Shown here: in pieces, positions 59 through 5,231 of the stretch
Numbering within the stretch: position 1 is the first letter of the stretch
Layout: each line of letters opens with the position of its first letter
Origin: an uncultured Halobacteriales archaeon
GTDB lineage: Archaea > Halobacteriota > Halobacteria > Halobacteriales > SKSH01
Length of the DNA: 64,000 nt
NCBI GenBank assembly: GCA_964502835.1
Contig: CAZCYF010000004.1
Span: 27,548-91,547 of the forward strand
Direction of reading: 5' to 3'
Notes under the pieces: generated by a model
Told to the model about the DNA's origin: nothing
Database searches by the model: none
Seen by the model: only the letters and a program-made list of their open reading frames with translations
Program-made: the position numbers and the translations under genes

Positions 59-475
59 TCATCCGCAGTGGCTACCGTCGAATCGAACGCTCGGCTCGCG
101 CCCATCGATGATTTCGGCAACGATGCGATTTTCCGGGTCCTCAGTACTACACGTGACGCGATAGAGGTGCGCCCACGTACTGCGACCGTTGAGCTCCACC
201 GCCACTTCAAGCAGGGTGTCGTTTGCTGCCTCGGTGATCGCTGATTCACGGATGACCGGTCCGCCGGGGACTGCTCCCGGCTGGGCTCCAATTCGAAAGG
301 TCCGATCAAGAACGACCTCGGACTCGGACTTCCTGACGGTGACGGCGGCTTCATGGTCGGCGTCCGTTTGGTTCCACAGTTCGAAGTGGACGGGCGCCTT
401 CGAATCCGTCCGGAATAGACAGCCGCCACCACCGAGGAGGAGACCAAGACTCAGCAAGAGCCAGCGGCGCTCCAT
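59..475 (-). CDS. Putative secreted lipoprotein (Tat-like signal with lipobox), function unknown
   Basis: From the ATG at 475 the protein reads MERRWLLLSLGLLLGGGGC: twin Arg, a hydrophobic stretch, then Gly-Cys, as in haloarchaeal lipoproteins. The longer ORF-track start (583) adds a non-signal-like extension. Confidence 0.6.
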   Translation of the reverse strand: MERRWLLLSLGLLLGGGGCLFRTDSKAPVHFELWNQTDADHEAAVTVRKSESEVVLDRTFRIGAQPGAVPGGPVIRESAITEAANDTLLEVAVELNGRSTWAHLYRVTCSTEDPENRIVAEIIDGREPSVRFDGSHCG

Positions 476-653: not shown

Positions 654-660
654 TATAAAT
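654..660 (+). promoter_or_regulatory. TATA box of the KstD-like gene
   Basis: TATAAAT lies 25-31 nt upstream of ATG 685, the usual spacing for a leaderless haloarchaeal transcript. Confidence 0.7.
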
Positions 661-663
661 GGT

Positions 664-681
664 ATTAAACGGACGTTTAAT
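664..681. promoter_or_regulatory. Candidate TetR operator (inverted repeat)
   Basis: ATTAAACG-GA-CGTTTAAT has perfect 8-bp arms and sits between the TATA box and the start codon. A TetR gene lies directly downstream of the regulated gene. Confidence 0.7.
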
Positions 682-684
682 TCC

Positions 685-2397
685 ATGGTGGATTGGGACT
701 ACACGACTGACGTCGTCATCGTCGGGTCCGGGGCGGGAGGCATGGTCAGCGCGCTCTACGCCCACCATCACGGGCTCGATGCGATCATCCTCGAAAAGAC
801 CGATACCTACGGTGGATCCTCGGCGCTCTCCGGCGGCGGGCTGTGGATTCCCGCGAACCATCTGATGGAGCAAGAGGGCGTCGGGGACAGCATCGAGAAG
901 GCTCGGACGTATCTCCAACACACCGTCGGCGACCGCGTGCCGCAGGTCAAACAGGACGCCTACCTCGAACACGCCCACGAGATGGCGCGCTGGCTGGCCG
1001 GTCACACACGCATGGAGTTCACCCGCATGGACGGCTACTCCGATTACTATCCGGAACGACCAGGTGGTATGAGCGAGGGGCGCGGCATCGAGGGGAAACC
1101 GTTCGATGGCACGAAGCTCGGCGAGACCTTTGACAACCTCAACACCTCCGATATGGAGGCGCCTGGTCCGCTGTCGTTCACGAGCGGCGAGTTTCGCAAC
1201 ATTGGCCTCGTCATGACGACCTGGCAGGGCAAGAAGACCGCCGCCAAGGTGGGGCTGCGGACGGTGAAAAACCTCATTCGAGGTGCCAAGCCGGTCACAA
1301 TGGGGGGTGCCCTCATCGGTCGGCTTCGCAAATCGCTGTTGGACAACGACATCCCGCTGTGGCTGAACGCGCCGTTTACCTCGTTCGTGCTCGAAGGTGA
1401 CCAGGTCGTGGGCGTCGTCGCCGAGCGCGCTGGCGAGGGGGAGGTCCACATCAAGGGTGAGCGTGGCGTGATCCTCGCTGCGGGGGGCTTTGCCCGCAAC
1501 GAAGCCATGCGCAAGGAGTTCCAGCAGGCGCCGATCACGGCCGATTGGACGGTCGCCAACGAGGGCAACACGGGCGATACGATCACCGCAGGGATGGAGG
1601 AGCTCGATGCCGCCGTCGACCTGATGGACGATGCATGGTGGGGCCCGGTGAGTACACCTCCCGACATGGACGATCCGATGTTTCACGTGGCCGAGCGAAA
1701 CGAGCCGGGGGCGATCATGGTCAACGGCCAGGGGCGTCGATACACGAACGAGTCCGCCTCCTACGTCGACGTGGGACACGCGATGTATGATGGCCACTCG
1801 GAGGACAACCCCCACATCCCATCCCACTTTATCATGGACAGCCGGTTCCGAAAGCGGTACGTCTTCGGGACGTTGATGCCTCGCCAATCCTTCCCTGAGA
1901 GCTACAGCGAATCCGGCTATTTGACGAAGGCAGACTCGCTCTCAGATTTGGCCCGGAAGCTCGACGTGCCTCCGGACAACCTGGTTGATGAGGTCGAGCG
2001 GTTCAACGAGTTCGCACGCCAAGGGACCGACGAGGACTTCGGCCGCGGTGAGAGCGCGTACGACCGGTACTATGGCGATCCGGCCCACGGGCCGAACCCG
2101 TGCCTGGGGACCATCGAGAACCCGCCCTACTACGCCGTGAAGTTCTGGCCAGGCGACCTCGGGACGAAAGGTGGGCTCCTCACCGACGAATGGGCGCGTG
2201 TGCTTCGCGAGGACGGCTCGATCATCCAGGGGCTATACGCCACCGGAAACAACATGGCGTCGGTCATGGGTCACACCTACCCCGGGCCGGGGTCGACGCT
2301 CGGCCCCACGACCACGTTCGGCTACATTGCCGTCACGGACATCGTCGAAAACGAGCCGCCGGAGGCGGCATCTGAGATCGTTGAACAGCAGCTATAA
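685..2397 (+). CDS. kstD: FAD-dependent 3-ketosteroid Delta1-dehydrogenase (KstD)-like flavoprotein
   Basis: Motifs: VGSGAGG...LEK FAD fingerprint, GGSSALSGGGLWIP, YSDYY, GVILAAGGF, RYTNESASY, DLGTKGGLLTD, GLYATGN, TYPGPGSTLG. These match the KstD branch of the FAD_binding_2 family. ATG 685 was chosen on TATA spacing. Confidence 0.8.
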   Translation: MVDWDYTTDVVIVGSGAGGMVSALYAHHHGLDAIILEKTDTYGGSSALSGGGLWIPANHLMEQEGVGDSIEKARTYLQHTVGDRVPQVKQDAYLEHAHEMARWLAGHTRMEFTRMDGYSDYYPERPGGMSEGRGIEGKPFDGTKLGETFDNLNTSDMEAPGPLSFTSGEFRNIGLVMTTWQGKKTAAKVGLRTVKNLIRGAKPVTMGGALIGRLRKSLLDNDIPLWLNAPFTSFVLEGDQVVGVVAERAGEGEVHIKGERGVILAAGGFARNEAMRKEFQQAPITADWTVANEGNTGDTITAGMEELDAAVDLMDDAWWGPVSTPPDMDDPMFHVAERNEPGAIMVNGQGRRYTNESASYVDVGHAMYDGHSEDNPHIPSHFIMDSRFRKRYVFGTLMPRQSFPESYSESGYLTKADSLSDLARKLDVPPDNLVDEVERFNEFARQGTDEDFGRGESAYDRYYGDPAHGPNPCLGTIENPPYYAVKFWPGDLGTKGGLLTDEWARVLREDGSIIQGLYATGNNMASVMGHTYPGPGSTLGPTTTFGYIAVTDIVENEPPEAASEIVEQQL

Positions 2398-2436
2398 GCA
2401 CTCCAGACCGCGTTCGACCACCAGTGAGGCTCACGA

Positions 2437-3060
2437 ATGAGCCACCCGATCCCCACGGACCAGCGCATCCGGGCGGCCGCGTTCCGCGCCCTGGCGGTGC
2501 AGGGGTACGCGAATCTCTCCATGCGCGACATCGGAGCGGAATTGGGCCAAAACCCCTCGATCATCTACCACTATTTCGACGGGAAGGACGACCTGTTGCG
2601 GTCGATGCTTGAGGTGTTCGTCGCGCACTTCCTCGACCGGCAGATCGATCAATCTGTCGGGGACCCGCGTGGTGAGCTCGACGCATTCGTCGACCAGCTC
2701 TTACATCCAGATCCCGAACGGGCGACTCGAATCTGGGAGGAGCCGCCGTCGGATCCCGGTGATGCCGTCAGGAAGGTGTACGTTGAGCTCTGGGCGCATG
2801 CGGCGTGGGATCGCAGGTTTCGCCAGCAGACGACCGAGGTCGAGAGTCGCCTGCAGCGTTCGATCGCGACCCTCATTCGCCAGGGGATCGAAGCCGGGCA
2901 GTTCCGCAACGTCGACGTCGACCGAGCGGCGGATCATATCTACTTTCTCACGAAGCAGGGGCTTCACACGCAGGCAACCACGAACCGGGATGACGCAACC
3001 AAACGGGCCAGTCAGCTGATTGACTCGGTTATCGACGACTTGGCCGTCGACGGCGATTGA
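2437..3060 (+). CDS. TetR/AcrR family transcriptional regulator
   Basis: N-terminal HTH (IRAAAFRALAVQGYANLSMRDIGAELGQNPSIIYHYFDGKDDLL) and a TetR_C-like tail (LIRQGIEAGQFR). Confidence 0.92.
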   Translation: MSHPIPTDQRIRAAAFRALAVQGYANLSMRDIGAELGQNPSIIYHYFDGKDDLLRSMLEVFVAHFLDRQIDQSVGDPRGELDAFVDQLLHPDPERATRIWEEPPSDPGDAVRKVYVELWAHAAWDRRFRQQTTEVESRLQRSIATLIRQGIEAGQFRNVDVDRAADHIYFLTKQGLHTQATTNRDDATKRASQLIDSVIDDLAVDGD

Positions 3061-3692
3061 GGTGACAACGACTCGGTTTGGTTCGATCCCCCGTCAGGGC
3101 ATGTCGGATCCGATGGTGATCGACACGGGAAAGCGACACCTCCACGCGAGACGTCGACCCGGCAATAGTGGGGACGGAATCGGAGGTGATCACCGATCCC
3201 AAGCACGGGGCCATGTTGTTGGTGGCCCACGGTTGACTCAATCGGATCGTCGCTGTTCAGCCATATATTCCCAAATCTCTGCACAGCCACAGCTACCCTC
3301 GAACTCGGCGTGAACATCGTGGCCGTCGGAATCTCCGTCCTCGCCGGATTCCGGATGTTGGCGATCCGATTCGTCGCCCATCAGGAGCGAGTTGGATGTC
3401 AGGTGTCATCAATTGATCGGCGACCCCGGTCATGCCTGGGTTCGGCCCCACCCGACTTCGAGGCGGTTCAATATCGGGCCAGATGGGACGAGCCACCGAC
3501 CGCGCCTTGTCGGGGGCGACCGCGTACGGTGCGACCTCCCGGCGCGCGAACGGGCTAGTCAGGTCGTGTGCAGGGGTGATCGGGAGCTGGTACGGAACGG
3601 TTTGCTGATCCTGCATGGTCCATCAGGGCGATCGACCAACGGTCCGCATGCTGCGGCGCAAAACGGGGCAATCAGACCAGGTATATTCCAAT

Positions 3693-3727
3693 CTTTTATC
3701 CCCGTCCACGTCTTGTAACGATTACAA
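3693..3727 (+). promoter_or_regulatory. TATA box plus inverted repeat upstream of the YegP-repeat gene
   Basis: CTTTTAT at 3693-3699. TTGTAA-CGA-TTACAA at 3713-3727 ends 1 nt before ATG 3729. Confidence 0.55.
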
Positions 3728-3728
3728 T

Positions 3729-5231
3729 ATGTCAGGGCAAACATCGGGCAACTTCCTATACAGAATCTATCGAGATCGCATCGGTGAGCCGACAACCCAC
3801 GATGAGGTCCGAGGATACTGGATCTTCCTGACGGGTCTCGCCCTGTCACTCATCGGGATAGCGCTGTTTCTCCTGAGCGAATCGGCGGCCGGCGCCAGCG
3901 AGTTCACGCTTCGAGAATTGAGCATTTTCGTCGCGGCAGTCGGGCTCGCGATGCTGGTTGCGGGACCGATCATTCGGCTCCCGTTGCGACGATGGGCGAA
4001 CTACGGCGCCTACCTCGGCCAACTGGTCGCATTTTTGGCCGCCGTTTGGTTTCTCATCGTCTTTCCCCAGGACTGGAGCGTTGCAACTGGTAACCAACCC
4101 GTCATCATGGTCTATGGCGCCGGGATCCTCATCATCACGGTCGGCGGCCTGATCGCACCCGTTCTCGCCGGGGCCCGTCGTGAAGATCTCGAGGCAAGCC
4201 AGGCCATGGCCAGCGCACTCGAAGACGAGCTCGAACGAGCGCGAGAGACTACACGGTCCGTCAGGGGCGATTTCGAGGCACAGTTGAATGCGCTGCACGA
4301 CAGCCAGGGTCGGTTCGAAGTCTTCCAAGACCGGGGCGACGAATGGCGCTGGCGGCTTCGTCACCGCAATGGCAACGTCATTGCGGACAGTGGTGAGGGC
4401 TATACACGAAAACACAACGCCAACAAAGGGTTGCAAAGCGTCCGACGAAACGCCCTTGGAGCCACCATCTTGCTCATCGAACCCGAGGAGGAACTCCCAG
4501 AGGAGGGCGACTCGTTCGAGCCGGTCGACGCCCGTCCGAGCCAAGCCACCTTCGAGGTCTTTGCGGATCAACGCGGCGAGCATCGCTTCCGCCTTCGACA
4601 CGATAACGGCAACATCCTCGCCGACGGGGGCGAGGGATACGACTCGGCCAGCAATGCCCGTCGCGCCATTGAACGGCTTCGTGAAACCGTCGGTCCGGCG
4701 AACTATCTCCGGTTCGATCCGACCGGGTTCGAGGTCTACCTAGACGCAGCAGGTGAATGGCGGTGGCGACTCGTCCACCGCAATGGCAACATCCTGGCCG
4801 ATAGCGGACAGGGCTATTCACGTCGACATGACGCAAACCGGGCCGTCGCCCGGATCCGAGACGGGATTGATGACCTCGAGTTCGAAGTCTATGCGGATCA
4901 GGGCGATGAGTTCCGCTGGCGGCTCCTCGCGAGCAACGATCGAATCCTGGCTGACAGTGGTGAGGGCTATCGCGATCGAACCGAAGCCGAGGCGGCCGTG
5001 CGCCGGATTCACGAATACGCCCCCGATGCCGACATTCTCGAGATTGGACAGGCGACCTTCGAGATATATGAGGACCGCGACGGGGAGCACCGCTGGCGGT
5101 TGCGCCACCGCAACGGCAACATTCTCCTTGACAGCGGTGAGGGCTACGCTGACCGCACACGGGCCCGGGAGTCGATTGAGGGGATCAAGCTGAACGCCCC
5201 GACCGCCGGTCTTGAGACGGTTTCGGAATAG
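3729..5231 (+). CDS. Membrane-anchored protein with five tandem YegP/DUF1508 domains
   Basis: About four N-terminal hydrophobic helices and a coiled-coil-like linker, then five FE(V/I)(Y/F)xDxxxE(W/H/F)R(W/F)RL...ADxGxGY units starting at 4314, 4551, 4728, 4881 and 5058. Confidence 0.85.
   Translation: MSGQTSGNFLYRIYRDRIGEPTTHDEVRGYWIFLTGLALSLIGIALFLLSESAAGASEFTLRELSIFVAAVGLAMLVAGPIIRLPLRRWANYGAYLGQLVAFLAAVWFLIVFPQDWSVATGNQPVIMVYGAGILIITVGGLIAPVLAGARREDLEASQAMASALEDELERARETTRSVRGDFEAQLNALHDSQGRFEVFQDRGDEWRWRLRHRNGNVIADSGEGYTRKHNANKGLQSVRRNALGATILLIEPEEELPEEGDSFEPVDARPSQATFEVFADQRGEHRFRLRHDNGNILADGGEGYDSASNARRAIERLRETVGPANYLRFDPTGFEVYLDAAGEWRWRLVHRNGNILADSGQGYSRRHDANRAVARIRDGIDDLEFEVYADQGDEFRWRLLASNDRILADSGEGYRDRTEAEAAVRRIHEYAPDADILEIGQATFEIYEDRDGEHRWRLRHRNGNILLDSGEGYADRTRARESIEGIKLNAPTAGLETVSE

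Follow-up and report, generated by a model that had tools for sequence, protein, structure and literature searches.

The window, i.e. the whole 64-kb stretch of DNA that was analysed, most likely holds at positions 654 to 3060 a self-contained, autoregulated kstD-tetR unit, in which a dimer of the encoded TetR protein would sit on a palindrome at 664–681 and block initiation of transcription. Repressor and palindrome appear to be a diverged version of a TetR/operator pair that occurs in many haloarchaeal loci, usually beside genes for a cytochrome P450 and a short-chain dehydrogenase (SDR). The features of the unit are as follows.

654..660, + strand: TATA box TATAAAT (letters read directly)
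659..686, strand not applicable: extended inverted repeat ATGGTATTAAACG-GA-CGTTTAATTCCAT, 13-nt arms with 1 mismatch
664..681, strand not applicable: putative operator, a perfect 8-2-8 inverted repeat consisting of ATTAAACG (664–671), GA (672–673) and CGTTTAAT (674–681) (letters read directly)
685..2397, + strand: kstD-like gene, 570 aa, FAD-dependent 3-ketosteroid delta-1-dehydrogenase family, AcmB type (PF00890, NCBIfam, PDB 7P18)
2398..2436, + strand: kstD-tetR spacer, 39 nt, with GAGG at 2426–2429, 7 nt before the tetR ATG
2437..3060, + strand: tetR, 207 aa, TetR/AcrR family (PF00440 and PF13977)

Promoter layout and the proposed switch

When the sequence was re-read, the elements that an earlier, sequence-only reading had placed here were all found to be correct: the TATA box, the palindrome, the start codon at 685, the 39-nt gap between kstD and tetR, and the spacing of 4 nt between AAC (668–670) and GTT (675–677). 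The ATG at 685–687, and not the upstream GTG at 640, is taken as the true kstD start, since the motif M-x-D-W-D-Y begins there in 16 of 16 haloarchaeal orthologues; the reading frame closes with TAA at 2395–2397. The palindrome ends 3 nt before the start codon and thus covers approximately -21 to -4 relative to the ATG, and the centre of the TATA box lies about 28 nt upstream of it. This distance implies a leaderless or near-leaderless transcript, with a start site that is predicted from the spacing. A CTATAA core is common to the window promoter and to the promoters of the related loci described below; its C is at position 653 in the window, 32 nt upstream of the ATG, and the core lies 29 nt upstream of the ATG in P450 promoters adjoining homologous TetRs.

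We suggest that the encoded TetR binds as a homodimer to the 18-bp dyad ATTAAACG-GA-CGTTTAAT, whose half-site centres are 10 bp apart, placing both on one face of the helix. With an mRNA that is most likely leaderless and a site located between the TATA box and the start codon, bound TetR would leave the TATA box exposed and occupy the DNA that is contacted or melted by TFB and RNA polymerase, so that initiation would be blocked. In TetR repressors in general, ligand binding releases the DNA. Here, a hydrophobic ligand, most likely a substrate or intermediate of the controlled enzyme or enzymes, would bind the TetR_C_6-type C-terminal domain and free the promoter; since tetR follows kstD after 39 nt, induction would also raise the level of the repressor (negative feedback). 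TetR binding, repression, transcription start, co-transcription and ligand are in each case predicted by comparison with other loci and regulators. The two genes are probably co-transcribed, and a scan of the 2398–2436 spacer with the weight matrix described below gave no operator-like site. A CTATAAG sequence at 2392–2398, overlapping the kstD stop codon, could be a weak internal promoter for tetR; a promoter of its own for tetR would weaken the claim of autoregulation.

A haloarchaeal family of TetR proteins and operators

The window TetR contains a PF00440 helix-turn-helix (HTH) domain (residues 11–56, 51.3 bits, cut-off 24) and a C-terminal ligand-binding/dimerisation domain of the PF13977 type (TetR_C_6, 41.6 bits, cut-off 27). 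It groups with other haloarchaeal proteins in a family that counts at least 47 members and has a near-invariant HTH. The recognition helix GQNPS[IL]IYHY, conserved in the 47-member alignment A2, is identical in the window protein, which also keeps family-invariant residues such as V116-E-L-W119 and W124. Judged by its sequence, in which both the HTH and the C-terminal domain are intact, the protein is a genuine member of the family. At 50–61% identity to the 46 other members it is the most divergent one, which makes its affinity and specificity uncertain. The neighbours of the family in other genomes are P450 and SDR genes and sometimes kstD, the last belonging to such a TetR-P450-SDR module in Halobium palmae (L102).

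The loci of this family share a conserved 18-bp operator, ATTAATTG-N2-CAATTAAT (written out whole, ATTAATTGGTCAATTAAT). In 185 kb comprising 17 loci with homologous TetRs, 26 sites were found within 3 mismatches of this consensus, as compared with 0 in 30 simulations. All except two of the 26 end 2–18 nt upstream of a gene start; the gene encodes a P450, an SDR or KstD, except for an unidentified ORF located after the P450 in L111. The remaining two are at an ill-defined start and at a decayed P450. The P450 operator is positioned between the TATA box and the start codon, 2 nt from the latter, and the SDR operator overlaps the TATA box. P450 promoters have the common layout AAAAGaCCTATAAcTG-ATTAATTGGTCAATTAAc-TC-ATG, i.e. 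TATA box, operator and start codon, which is the order seen in the window. None of the family loci has an operator upstream of tetR itself; there, tetR has its own, site-free upstream region, whereas the window tetR is located downstream in the operon.

The window site matches the consensus at 12 of 16 positions. The four differences are symmetric and restricted to half-site positions 6–7, where AC replaces TT in both halves. A symmetric change in both half-sites is the pattern expected of a site bound by a dimer, and supports the operator reading. Moreover, the half-site ATTAAACG occurs in P450-type operators of other loci (L005, L110, L113), including those beside two of the closest TetR relatives. 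It is present in Halostagnicola kamekurae, which has the closest named relative of the window TetR (61% identity) and a decayed P450, on a Halostagnicola larsenii plasmid beside genes annotated in RefSeq as TetR/AcrR and cytochrome P450, and in a P450-type operator of Natrinema zhouii. The substitution K30R at the start of helix 2 was considered as a cause of the TT-to-AC change and rejected, as it does not track positions 6–7; TetRs with K or T at position 30 also adjoin operators whose half-sites read ATTAAACG or ATTAATCG. The recognition helix of the window protein does not differ from that of the family, and a search for covariation between amino acids and bases resolved none.

A family weight matrix was built from the related operators in other genomes, with the window site left out. 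With this matrix the window site ranks first in the 64 kb, at 19.3 bits (second best, 9.7), a score reached in 0 of 100 simulated 64-kb sequences and lower than that of every other family operator (23.5–35.1 bits).

Comparison of 12 kstD orthologue loci showed that the type of palindrome follows the type of the neighbouring TetR. Family A TetRs (the window and L102) are accompanied by ATTrAnyG-N2-CrnTyAAT, and a TetR subfamily of 41% identity (L101, L109) by TGATTGA-N4-TCAATCA, 1 nt from the ATG. An unrelated TetR of 27% identity (L004, L019, L024) is found with TTACCGA-N4-TCGGTAA, of which L106 and L107 have a degenerate copy. The two kstD loci without a TetR (L099, L108) have no palindrome within 60 nt; L099 is the closest kstD orthologue (82% identity). 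The sequence-only reading had looked to conservation of its motif upstream of orthologues and named the lack of it as grounds for refutation. The exact window palindrome is in fact not conserved there, which formally tells against that reading, the reason being that the operator travels with TetR and not with kstD. The core of the same reading, a repressor seated on the core promoter, is strongly supported by the conserved 8-2-8 operators at the same promoter position beside homologous TetRs and by operator types that change with TetR type and vanish without it. It is very probable that the TetR encoded just downstream binds the palindrome at 664–681.

The switch would not have originated at this locus but have diverged from a haloarchaeal TetR/operator pair that usually controls P450 and SDR, with KstD as an occasional third target. 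The window shares with the TetR-P450-SDR(-KstD) module the TetR family, the operator architecture, the half-site variants and the placement between TATA box and start codon, and differs from it in having a TetR of at most 61% identity and no nearby P450 or SDR. A tblastn search with the Halobium palmae proteins detected neither gene in the window at E = 1e-10, nor were they found in the 4.3 kb upstream of it, so that the pathway context is missing. Searches of the literature yielded nothing relevant on haloarchaeal ketosteroid dehydrogenases or on a TetR/P450 regulon, and no description of the module; the paper on the Halobacterium CYP174A1 locus, which was considered as a possible published instance of the module, has no mention of TetR or of neighbouring genes.

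Other readings of the palindrome

The palindrome might be a chance product of an easily melting, AT-rich core promoter/initiation region that has no dedicated regulator. Archaeal promoters are AT-rich within GC-rich genomes, and the window abounds in perfect palindromes with arms of 8 nt, having 30 where Markov simulations give about 20. Apart from the 664–681 site, however, none of the 30 is AT-rich, and 0.07 AT-rich ones would be expected in 64 kb; the 18-mer pattern has a single match in the window even when 3 mismatches are allowed, whereas 0 of 100 shuffles gave any. Chance would also have to account for the symmetric relationship to an operator that is conserved at 17 or more loci beside homologous TetRs, and for the palindrome-free promoter region of the closest kstD orthologue, which is without a TetR. 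We therefore regard a chance origin as very improbable. Even harder to credit is an RNA hairpin in a leadered transcript, in which AUGG (659–662) would pair with CCAU (683–686) and hide the start codon. The extended repeat at 659–686 does run from the end of the TATA box to the start codon and folds to -9.1 kcal/mol with the AU of the start codon included, but the fold is no better than that of shuffled sequences (z = -1.2; 22 of 200 shuffles at least as stable), and on this score the hairpin was rejected. In addition, a transcript beginning inside the TATA box would need a second promoter further upstream, where none is evident, and the 659–686 extension was not seen in family operators elsewhere.

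A further reading accepts the site as a genuine family operator and assigns it mainly to a paralogous, P450/SDR-linked family A TetR encoded elsewhere; kstD would then join that regulon, and the local TetR would be redundant or have another target. This is compatible with the main explanation and does not exclude it. The recognition helix is identical across the family, the half-site of the window is found in natural operators beside other members, and in L004 and L019 two TetRs act in one locus. We nevertheless consider predominant occupation by a paralogue unlikely, because the 64-kb window and the 4.3 kb upstream show no paralogue and because at the kstD-tetR pairs of L101 and L109 the operator changes along with the local TetR.

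The KstD-like enzyme and the steroid question

In the kstD-like protein, PF00890 (FAD_binding_2) covers residues 9–539 with 282.6 bits, and the N-terminal GxGxxG motif is present as VVGSGAGG, which is invariant among the haloarchaeal orthologues. The protein aligns over its full length with PDB 7P18 (AcmB, E = 1e-124) and conserves the glycine matching AcmB G540, a residue with a catalytic role. AcmB of Sterolibacterium denitrificans has the catalytic tyrosines Y118, Y363 and Y536 (PMC9736390); these align with Y121, Y360 and Y532 of the window protein, which are invariant in 16 haloarchaeal orthologues, and the two proteins thus have the FAD-binding fold and the catalytic tyrosines in common. 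The scores with the NCBIfam models for 3-oxosteroid 1-dehydrogenase (NF005882, 700 bits, cut-off 788; NF009478, 696.2 bits, cut-off 789) are below the equivalog cut-offs, and the safest label is therefore KstD-family or AcmB-like, with delta-1 dehydrogenation of 3-ketosteroids as a predicted activity. Cyclohexanone-carboxylate desaturases belong to the same superfamily, and their models NF053676 and NF053677 give 343 and 336 bits, respectively, with the window protein. KstD relatives were collected by alignment-based scans of genome and metagenome contigs; single-protein scans of such contigs retrieved no relatives. The nearest relatives outside the haloarchaea are from Chloroflexota. To our knowledge, haloarchaea are not known as steroid degraders.

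KstR (Rv3574) and KstR2 of mycobacteria and Rhodococcus are TetR-family repressors that control kstD among other genes; KstR has dozens of target genes in steroid and lipid catabolism, and in its operator motif TnnAACnnGTTnnA the distance from AAC to GTT is 2 nt (PMC1995591). Their palindromic operators overlap promoters, a regulatory logic analogous to that of the window. The sequence-only reading had proposed an archaeal analogue of KstR control and suggested that the motif could lead to the rest of the regulon. This extension is unsupported, since the window TetR is unlike KstR, the motif is a different one, and the window has neither other sites nor other catabolic genes. As an orthologue of KstR or KstR2 (Rv3574 or Rv3557c) the protein was rejected: the best 60 of 65 PDB matches to the TetR family profile include no chain of either name, and NCBIfam gave weak, HTH-confined matches (BetI, RefZ, FadR and others), none of them named KstR. 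The site does not conform to TnnAACnnGTTnnA and fits ATTAAnnG-N2-CnnTTAAT instead. Neither a second operator site nor other steroid or lipid catabolic genes were found in the 64-kb window and the 4.3 kb upstream; the neighbours include genes for a lipoprotein, HxlR, DoxX, ABC transporters and a K+ channel. Dozens of KstR targets thus compare with a single site and a single enzyme here; elsewhere, the family operator has P450 and SDR as its core targets, not genes for degradation of the steroid ring or side chain. By itself, the locus is no demonstration of steroid catabolism in archaea.

A bacterial-type repressor on an archaeal promoter, the other general claim of the earlier reading, holds true but is nothing new in kind. 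In Sulfolobus acidocaldarius, FadR has been characterised as an archaeal TetR repressor that is released by its ligand, acyl-CoA; it binds pseudo-palindromic operators at few promoters, where a dimer of dimers also forms, and its targets are a set of catabolic genes for lipases and beta-oxidation (PMC6449355). This precedent shows that a TetR-type switch works with the archaeal transcription machinery. FadR is crenarchaeal and has another motif, whereas the window TetR is haloarchaeal; the two show no specific sequence kinship beyond the HTH, and FadR structures are not among the top PDB matches of the family. In kind, the window locus is an ordinary repressor/operator pair.

We know of very few archaeal TetR regulators with a known operator. 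Here, sequence alone yields a defined operator with more than 25 natural instances in a constant position with respect to TATA box and start codon, as well as three interchangeable TetR/operator types before one orthologous gene. This is material for studying how a bacterial-type repressor interferes with the assembly of TBP, TFB and RNA polymerase on leaderless promoters, and might be of use for inducible promoters in haloarchaea. It also marks an uncharacterised, widespread haloarchaeal P450-SDR(-KstD) enzyme set, for whose inducer or substrate the TetR could serve as a probe.

As for the chemistry, the P450 would hydroxylate, the SDR would oxidise the product to a ketone and KstD would desaturate next to this ketone; taken together, these steps resemble a module for oxidising the ring of an alicyclic or steroid-like compound. 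A bolder and rather doubtful proposal is that of a conserved, ligand-inducible haloarchaeal pathway of ring oxidation for steroid-like or other polycyclic isoprenoids, with the KstD step introducing the delta-1 double bond, in which a kstD acquired from bacteria came, on at least three separate occasions, under the control of different TetR/operator pairs on a leaderless core promoter. If this is true, Archaea would have their first regulon for steroid-type transformation, and haloarchaeal genetics would gain natural, orthogonal switches operated by small molecules. A fold match would not reveal the ligand, since TetR folds are too much alike; the best solved relative of the family profile is PDB 3crj (E = 1.7e-25, a distant similarity), a structural-genomics TetR-family regulator that we take to be from Haloarcula marismortui.

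The kstD-tetR unit

By domain search the 570-aa product of the kstD-like gene is an FAD_binding_2 enzyme, and its top NCBIfam matches are two 3-oxosteroid 1-dehydrogenase models (700 and 696 bits; both fall short of the equivalog cut-offs, 788 and 789). Its alignment with AcmB of Sterolibacterium denitrificans (PDB 7P18) is full-length, with E = 1e-124. The catalytic tyrosines of AcmB are Y118, Y363 and Y536 (PMC9736390); the counterparts Y121, Y360 and Y532 are invariant across the haloarchaeal clade. Based on these matches, the alignment and the conserved tyrosines, the protein is assigned to the KstD family, AcmB type, with steroid as a putative substrate. In haloarchaea, KstD forms a small clade of patchy distribution (~15 sequences, 65-82% identity). 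Its nearest relatives outside haloarchaea are in Chloroflexota (~60-62%), followed by Heimdallarchaeia / Asgard MAGs (~53-58%), which suggests that kstD was acquired horizontally.

The sequence-only reading had placed a palindromic operator between the TATA box and start codon of kstD, with tetR closely following. Direct reading of the sequence confirmed the arrangement, with a gap of 39 nt between the two genes:

654-660, TATA box (TATAAAT)
664-681, palindrome ATTAAACG-GA-CGTTTAAT, the proposed TetR operator
685-2397 (+), kstD-like gene, ATG at 685, stop TAA at 2395-2397
2426-2429, GAGG, 7 nt before the tetR ATG
2437-3060 (+), tetR, 207 aa, ATG at 2437

The ORF finder offers an alternative upstream start for kstD, GTG 640; ATG 685 is the start, since 16/16 haloarchaeal orthologues begin with M-x-D-W-D-Y at this position. 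The palindrome lies within a longer inverted repeat, 659-686, whose 13-nt arms (ATGGTATTAAACG / CGTTTAATTCCAT) have a single mismatch; it overlaps the end of the TATA box on one side and the start codon on the other.

The TetR protein contains TetR_N and TetR_C_6 domains, and its NCBIfam matches are weak and at HTH level only. Its 46 homologues (50-61% identity) are all haloarchaeal, and across the family the DNA-binding region (...DIGxELGQNPS[IL]IYHYFDSKDDLL...) is nearly invariant; the window TetR is the most divergent member found. The best PDB match to the family profile is 3crj, a TetR-family structural-genomics target which we take to be from Haloarcula marismortui, and no chain named KstR or KstR2 is among the best 60 of the 65 PDB sequences matched.

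A family operator and its probable variant in the window

Seventeen genomic loci of the TetR family were retrieved and their neighbours typed by tblastn with the Halobium palmae neighbour genes. The regulator almost always adjoins a cytochrome P450 and/or short-chain dehydrogenase (SDR) gene, in Haloferax, Haladaptatus, Natrinema, Haloterrigena, Natrialba, Halopelagius, Halarchaeum and others; on a Halostagnicola larsenii plasmid, RefSeq lists TetR/AcrR WP_049955186.1 and cytochrome P450 WP_049955185.1. KstD joins this group in Halobium palmae (L102), Halobacterium bonnevillei (L004) and a metagenome contig (L019). The window pair is isolated, with no P450 or SDR homologue in the 64 kb or in 4.3 kb further upstream, where the genes are for a small lipoprotein, HxlR, DoxX and a protein of 1003 aa; downstream are transporters and unrelated functions.

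A palindrome scan, together with upstream regions aligned at start codons, revealed a conserved 18-bp dyad at the family loci, ATTAATTG-N2-CAATTAAT. P450 promoters have an almost invariant layout of TATA box, operator and, 2 nt on, start codon (AAAAGaCCTATAAcTG-ATTAATTGGTCAATTAAc-TC-ATG), whereas at SDR promoters and Halobium palmae kstD the operator begins within the TATA box (CTAT-ATTAATTG...). With up to 3 mismatches there are 26 sites in 185 kb, compared to 0 in 30 simulations. All but two end 2-18 nt 5' of the start of a P450, SDR, KstD or (L111) unidentified ORF after a P450; of the remaining two, one belongs to a P450 whose start is ill-defined and the other to a P450 that has decayed. 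At the same threshold no operator precedes tetR itself in the family loci.

The window site shares the 8-2-8 geometry of this dyad and agrees with the consensus at 12/16 positions. Its four differences are at half-site positions 6 and 7 (TT to AC), identically in both halves, as would be expected if selection preserves dimer binding. These positions vary among family operators (most often TT, followed by TC, CT and AC), and the exact half-site ATTAAACG recurs in three P450-type operators: in Natrinema zhouii (L005), in Halostagnicola kamekurae (L110, ATTAAACG-AT-CGATTAAT), which among named relatives has the closest TetR (61% identity), and on the Halostagnicola larsenii plasmid (ATTAAACG-AT-CAATTAAT, then CC-ATG). 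The window promoter layout also matches the P450 type: the ATG is 32 nt downstream of the start of CTATAA, compared with 29 nt in P450 promoters, and 3 nt rather than 2 nt separate it from the operator.

Might the palindrome be a chance feature of an AT-rich promoter? Perfect palindromes with 8-nt arms number 30 in the window against ~20 in Markov simulations, and one such palindrome is by itself not remarkable at 62-68% GC. The window site is the sole AT-rich one among the 30 (0.07 expected), and its pattern occurs once in the window with up to 3 mismatches allowed and in none of the shuffles. With a weight matrix built from 20 family operators, the window site left out, it ranks first in the window at 19.3 bits (9.7 for the runner-up), and 0/100 simulated sequences reach this score. 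Other members score higher, at 23.5-35.1 bits. In a rival reading the site is bound mainly by a paralogous TetR. The inverted repeat might also act as an RNA hairpin, but the fold is no better than that of shuffles. Overall, the window site is best read as a variant of the family operator.

Longer palindromes of 20-24 bp are present at some SDR/P450 promoters (L004 5814-5837, L019 7810-7835, L013 5709-5731, L002 3297-3318). They (e.g. TTAATTGAAC/GATCAATTAA) read as two overlapping family operators offset by 4 nt, and may be bound by two dimers. The extension to 13-nt arms found in the window is absent from family operators elsewhere. At L110 (5690-5976) an intact P450-type promoter and operator precede a 49-aa remnant with a P450-like N-terminus; here the target P450 has decayed while tetR and operator persist. 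Six loci from several genera (L001, L002, L004, L012, L019, L102) carry a conserved element, GATGAGAATACTGAA (variants GATGAGTATACTGAA, GATGAGGAATCTTGAA), ~45-50 nt 5' of the tetR ATG. It is in frame with tetR at some loci and out of frame at others, and so is probably not coding but part of a promoter or leader.

Putative operators at orthologous kstD loci

Twelve kstD loci were compared, of which L100 ends just past kstD and is hence uninformative. Conservation of the exact palindrome upstream of orthologues, a check proposed in the sequence-only reading, was not found. At loci with an adjacent TetR, a palindrome abutting the kstD start is the rule, and the palindrome sequence differs according to the type of TetR.

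Palindromes at kstD starts by type of adjacent TetR (locus; palindrome; distance to ATG)
Family TetR: window; ATTAAACG-GA-CGTTTAAT; 3 nt
Family TetR: L102; ATTGATTG-AT-CGATTAAT; 6 nt
TetR subfamily, 41% identity: L101, L109; TGATTGA-N4-TCAATCA; 1 nt
Unrelated TetR, ~27% identity: L004 (2977-2994), L019 (4975-4992), L024 (~4975-4992); TTACCGA-N4-TCGGTAA; 8 nt
Unrelated TetR, degenerate copy: L106, L107

An imperfect copy of the subfamily palindrome also precedes the SDR of L109. The unrelated TetR (72-96% identity within the group) is upstream of kstD in five loci, and in L106, with sites at ~1510-1530 and ~2345-2365, its palindrome also precedes its own gene. The TetR-less loci L099 (the closest orthologue, 82%) and L108 have no palindrome within 60 nt. 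That operator and regulator type co-vary in this way argues more strongly than any other finding for the palindromes being TetR binding sites, and it shows that kstD has repeatedly been brought under such control.

Proposed mechanism and relation to known systems

Leaderless transcripts are common in haloarchaea, and since the TATA centre is ~28 nt 5' of ATG 685, the kstD transcript is most likely leaderless. The operator would then span about -21 to -4. A TetR dimer bound at these positions, where one helical turn separates the half-site centres, would leave the TATA box uncovered and occupy DNA needed for recruitment of TFB and RNA polymerase and for promoter opening, as archaeal repressors with sites downstream of the TATA box classically do. 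In relatives, operator and TATA box overlap at SDR-type promoters, and there competition with TBP and TFB would be expected instead. Ligand in the C-terminal domain would cause DNA release, which is general behaviour of TetR proteins. The archaeal FadR_Sa releases DNA on ligand binding (PMC6449355).

The window tetR has no operator of its own and, given the 39-nt gap, is probably co-transcribed with kstD and hence autoregulated. CTATAAG (2392-2398), which overlaps the kstD stop and has AGCTATAA in common with the similar kstD TATA box, is 44 nt 5' of the tetR ATG. It may be a weak internal promoter allowing some independent tetR expression.

The association of P450, SDR and KstD suggests hydroxylation, oxidation to a ketone and desaturation beside it on an alicyclic ring. 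This logic is used for steroids and also, e.g., in cyclohexanecarboxylate aromatisation; related NCBIfam models are among the weaker matches. The SDR and P450 gave no assignment to specific families, and steroid is a candidate substrate only.

The unit had been proposed as an archaeal analogue of KstR control. Functionally it is like KstR-controlled kstD, and like FadR_Sa; tests of orthology, of the motif and of regulon content all place the window TetR outside the KstR family. TetR repressors on archaeal core promoters are an already established kind of system, of which this is a further case of moderate interest. A literature search of limited reach found no description of the haloarchaeal TetR/operator family.

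Two further genes of the window:

59-475 (-), divergent neighbour ~210 nt from kstD, small protein with a lipoprotein-type signal (MERRWLLLSLGLLLGGGGC)
3615-5231 (+), 538-aa protein

The former, predicted in L103 as a gene of 138 aa, has no family operator near its start. In the latter, several DUF1508 repeats with the unit 'FEVY.D..GEWRWRL.H.NGNILADSGEGY' follow a membrane region (CdpA_N) at the N-terminus.
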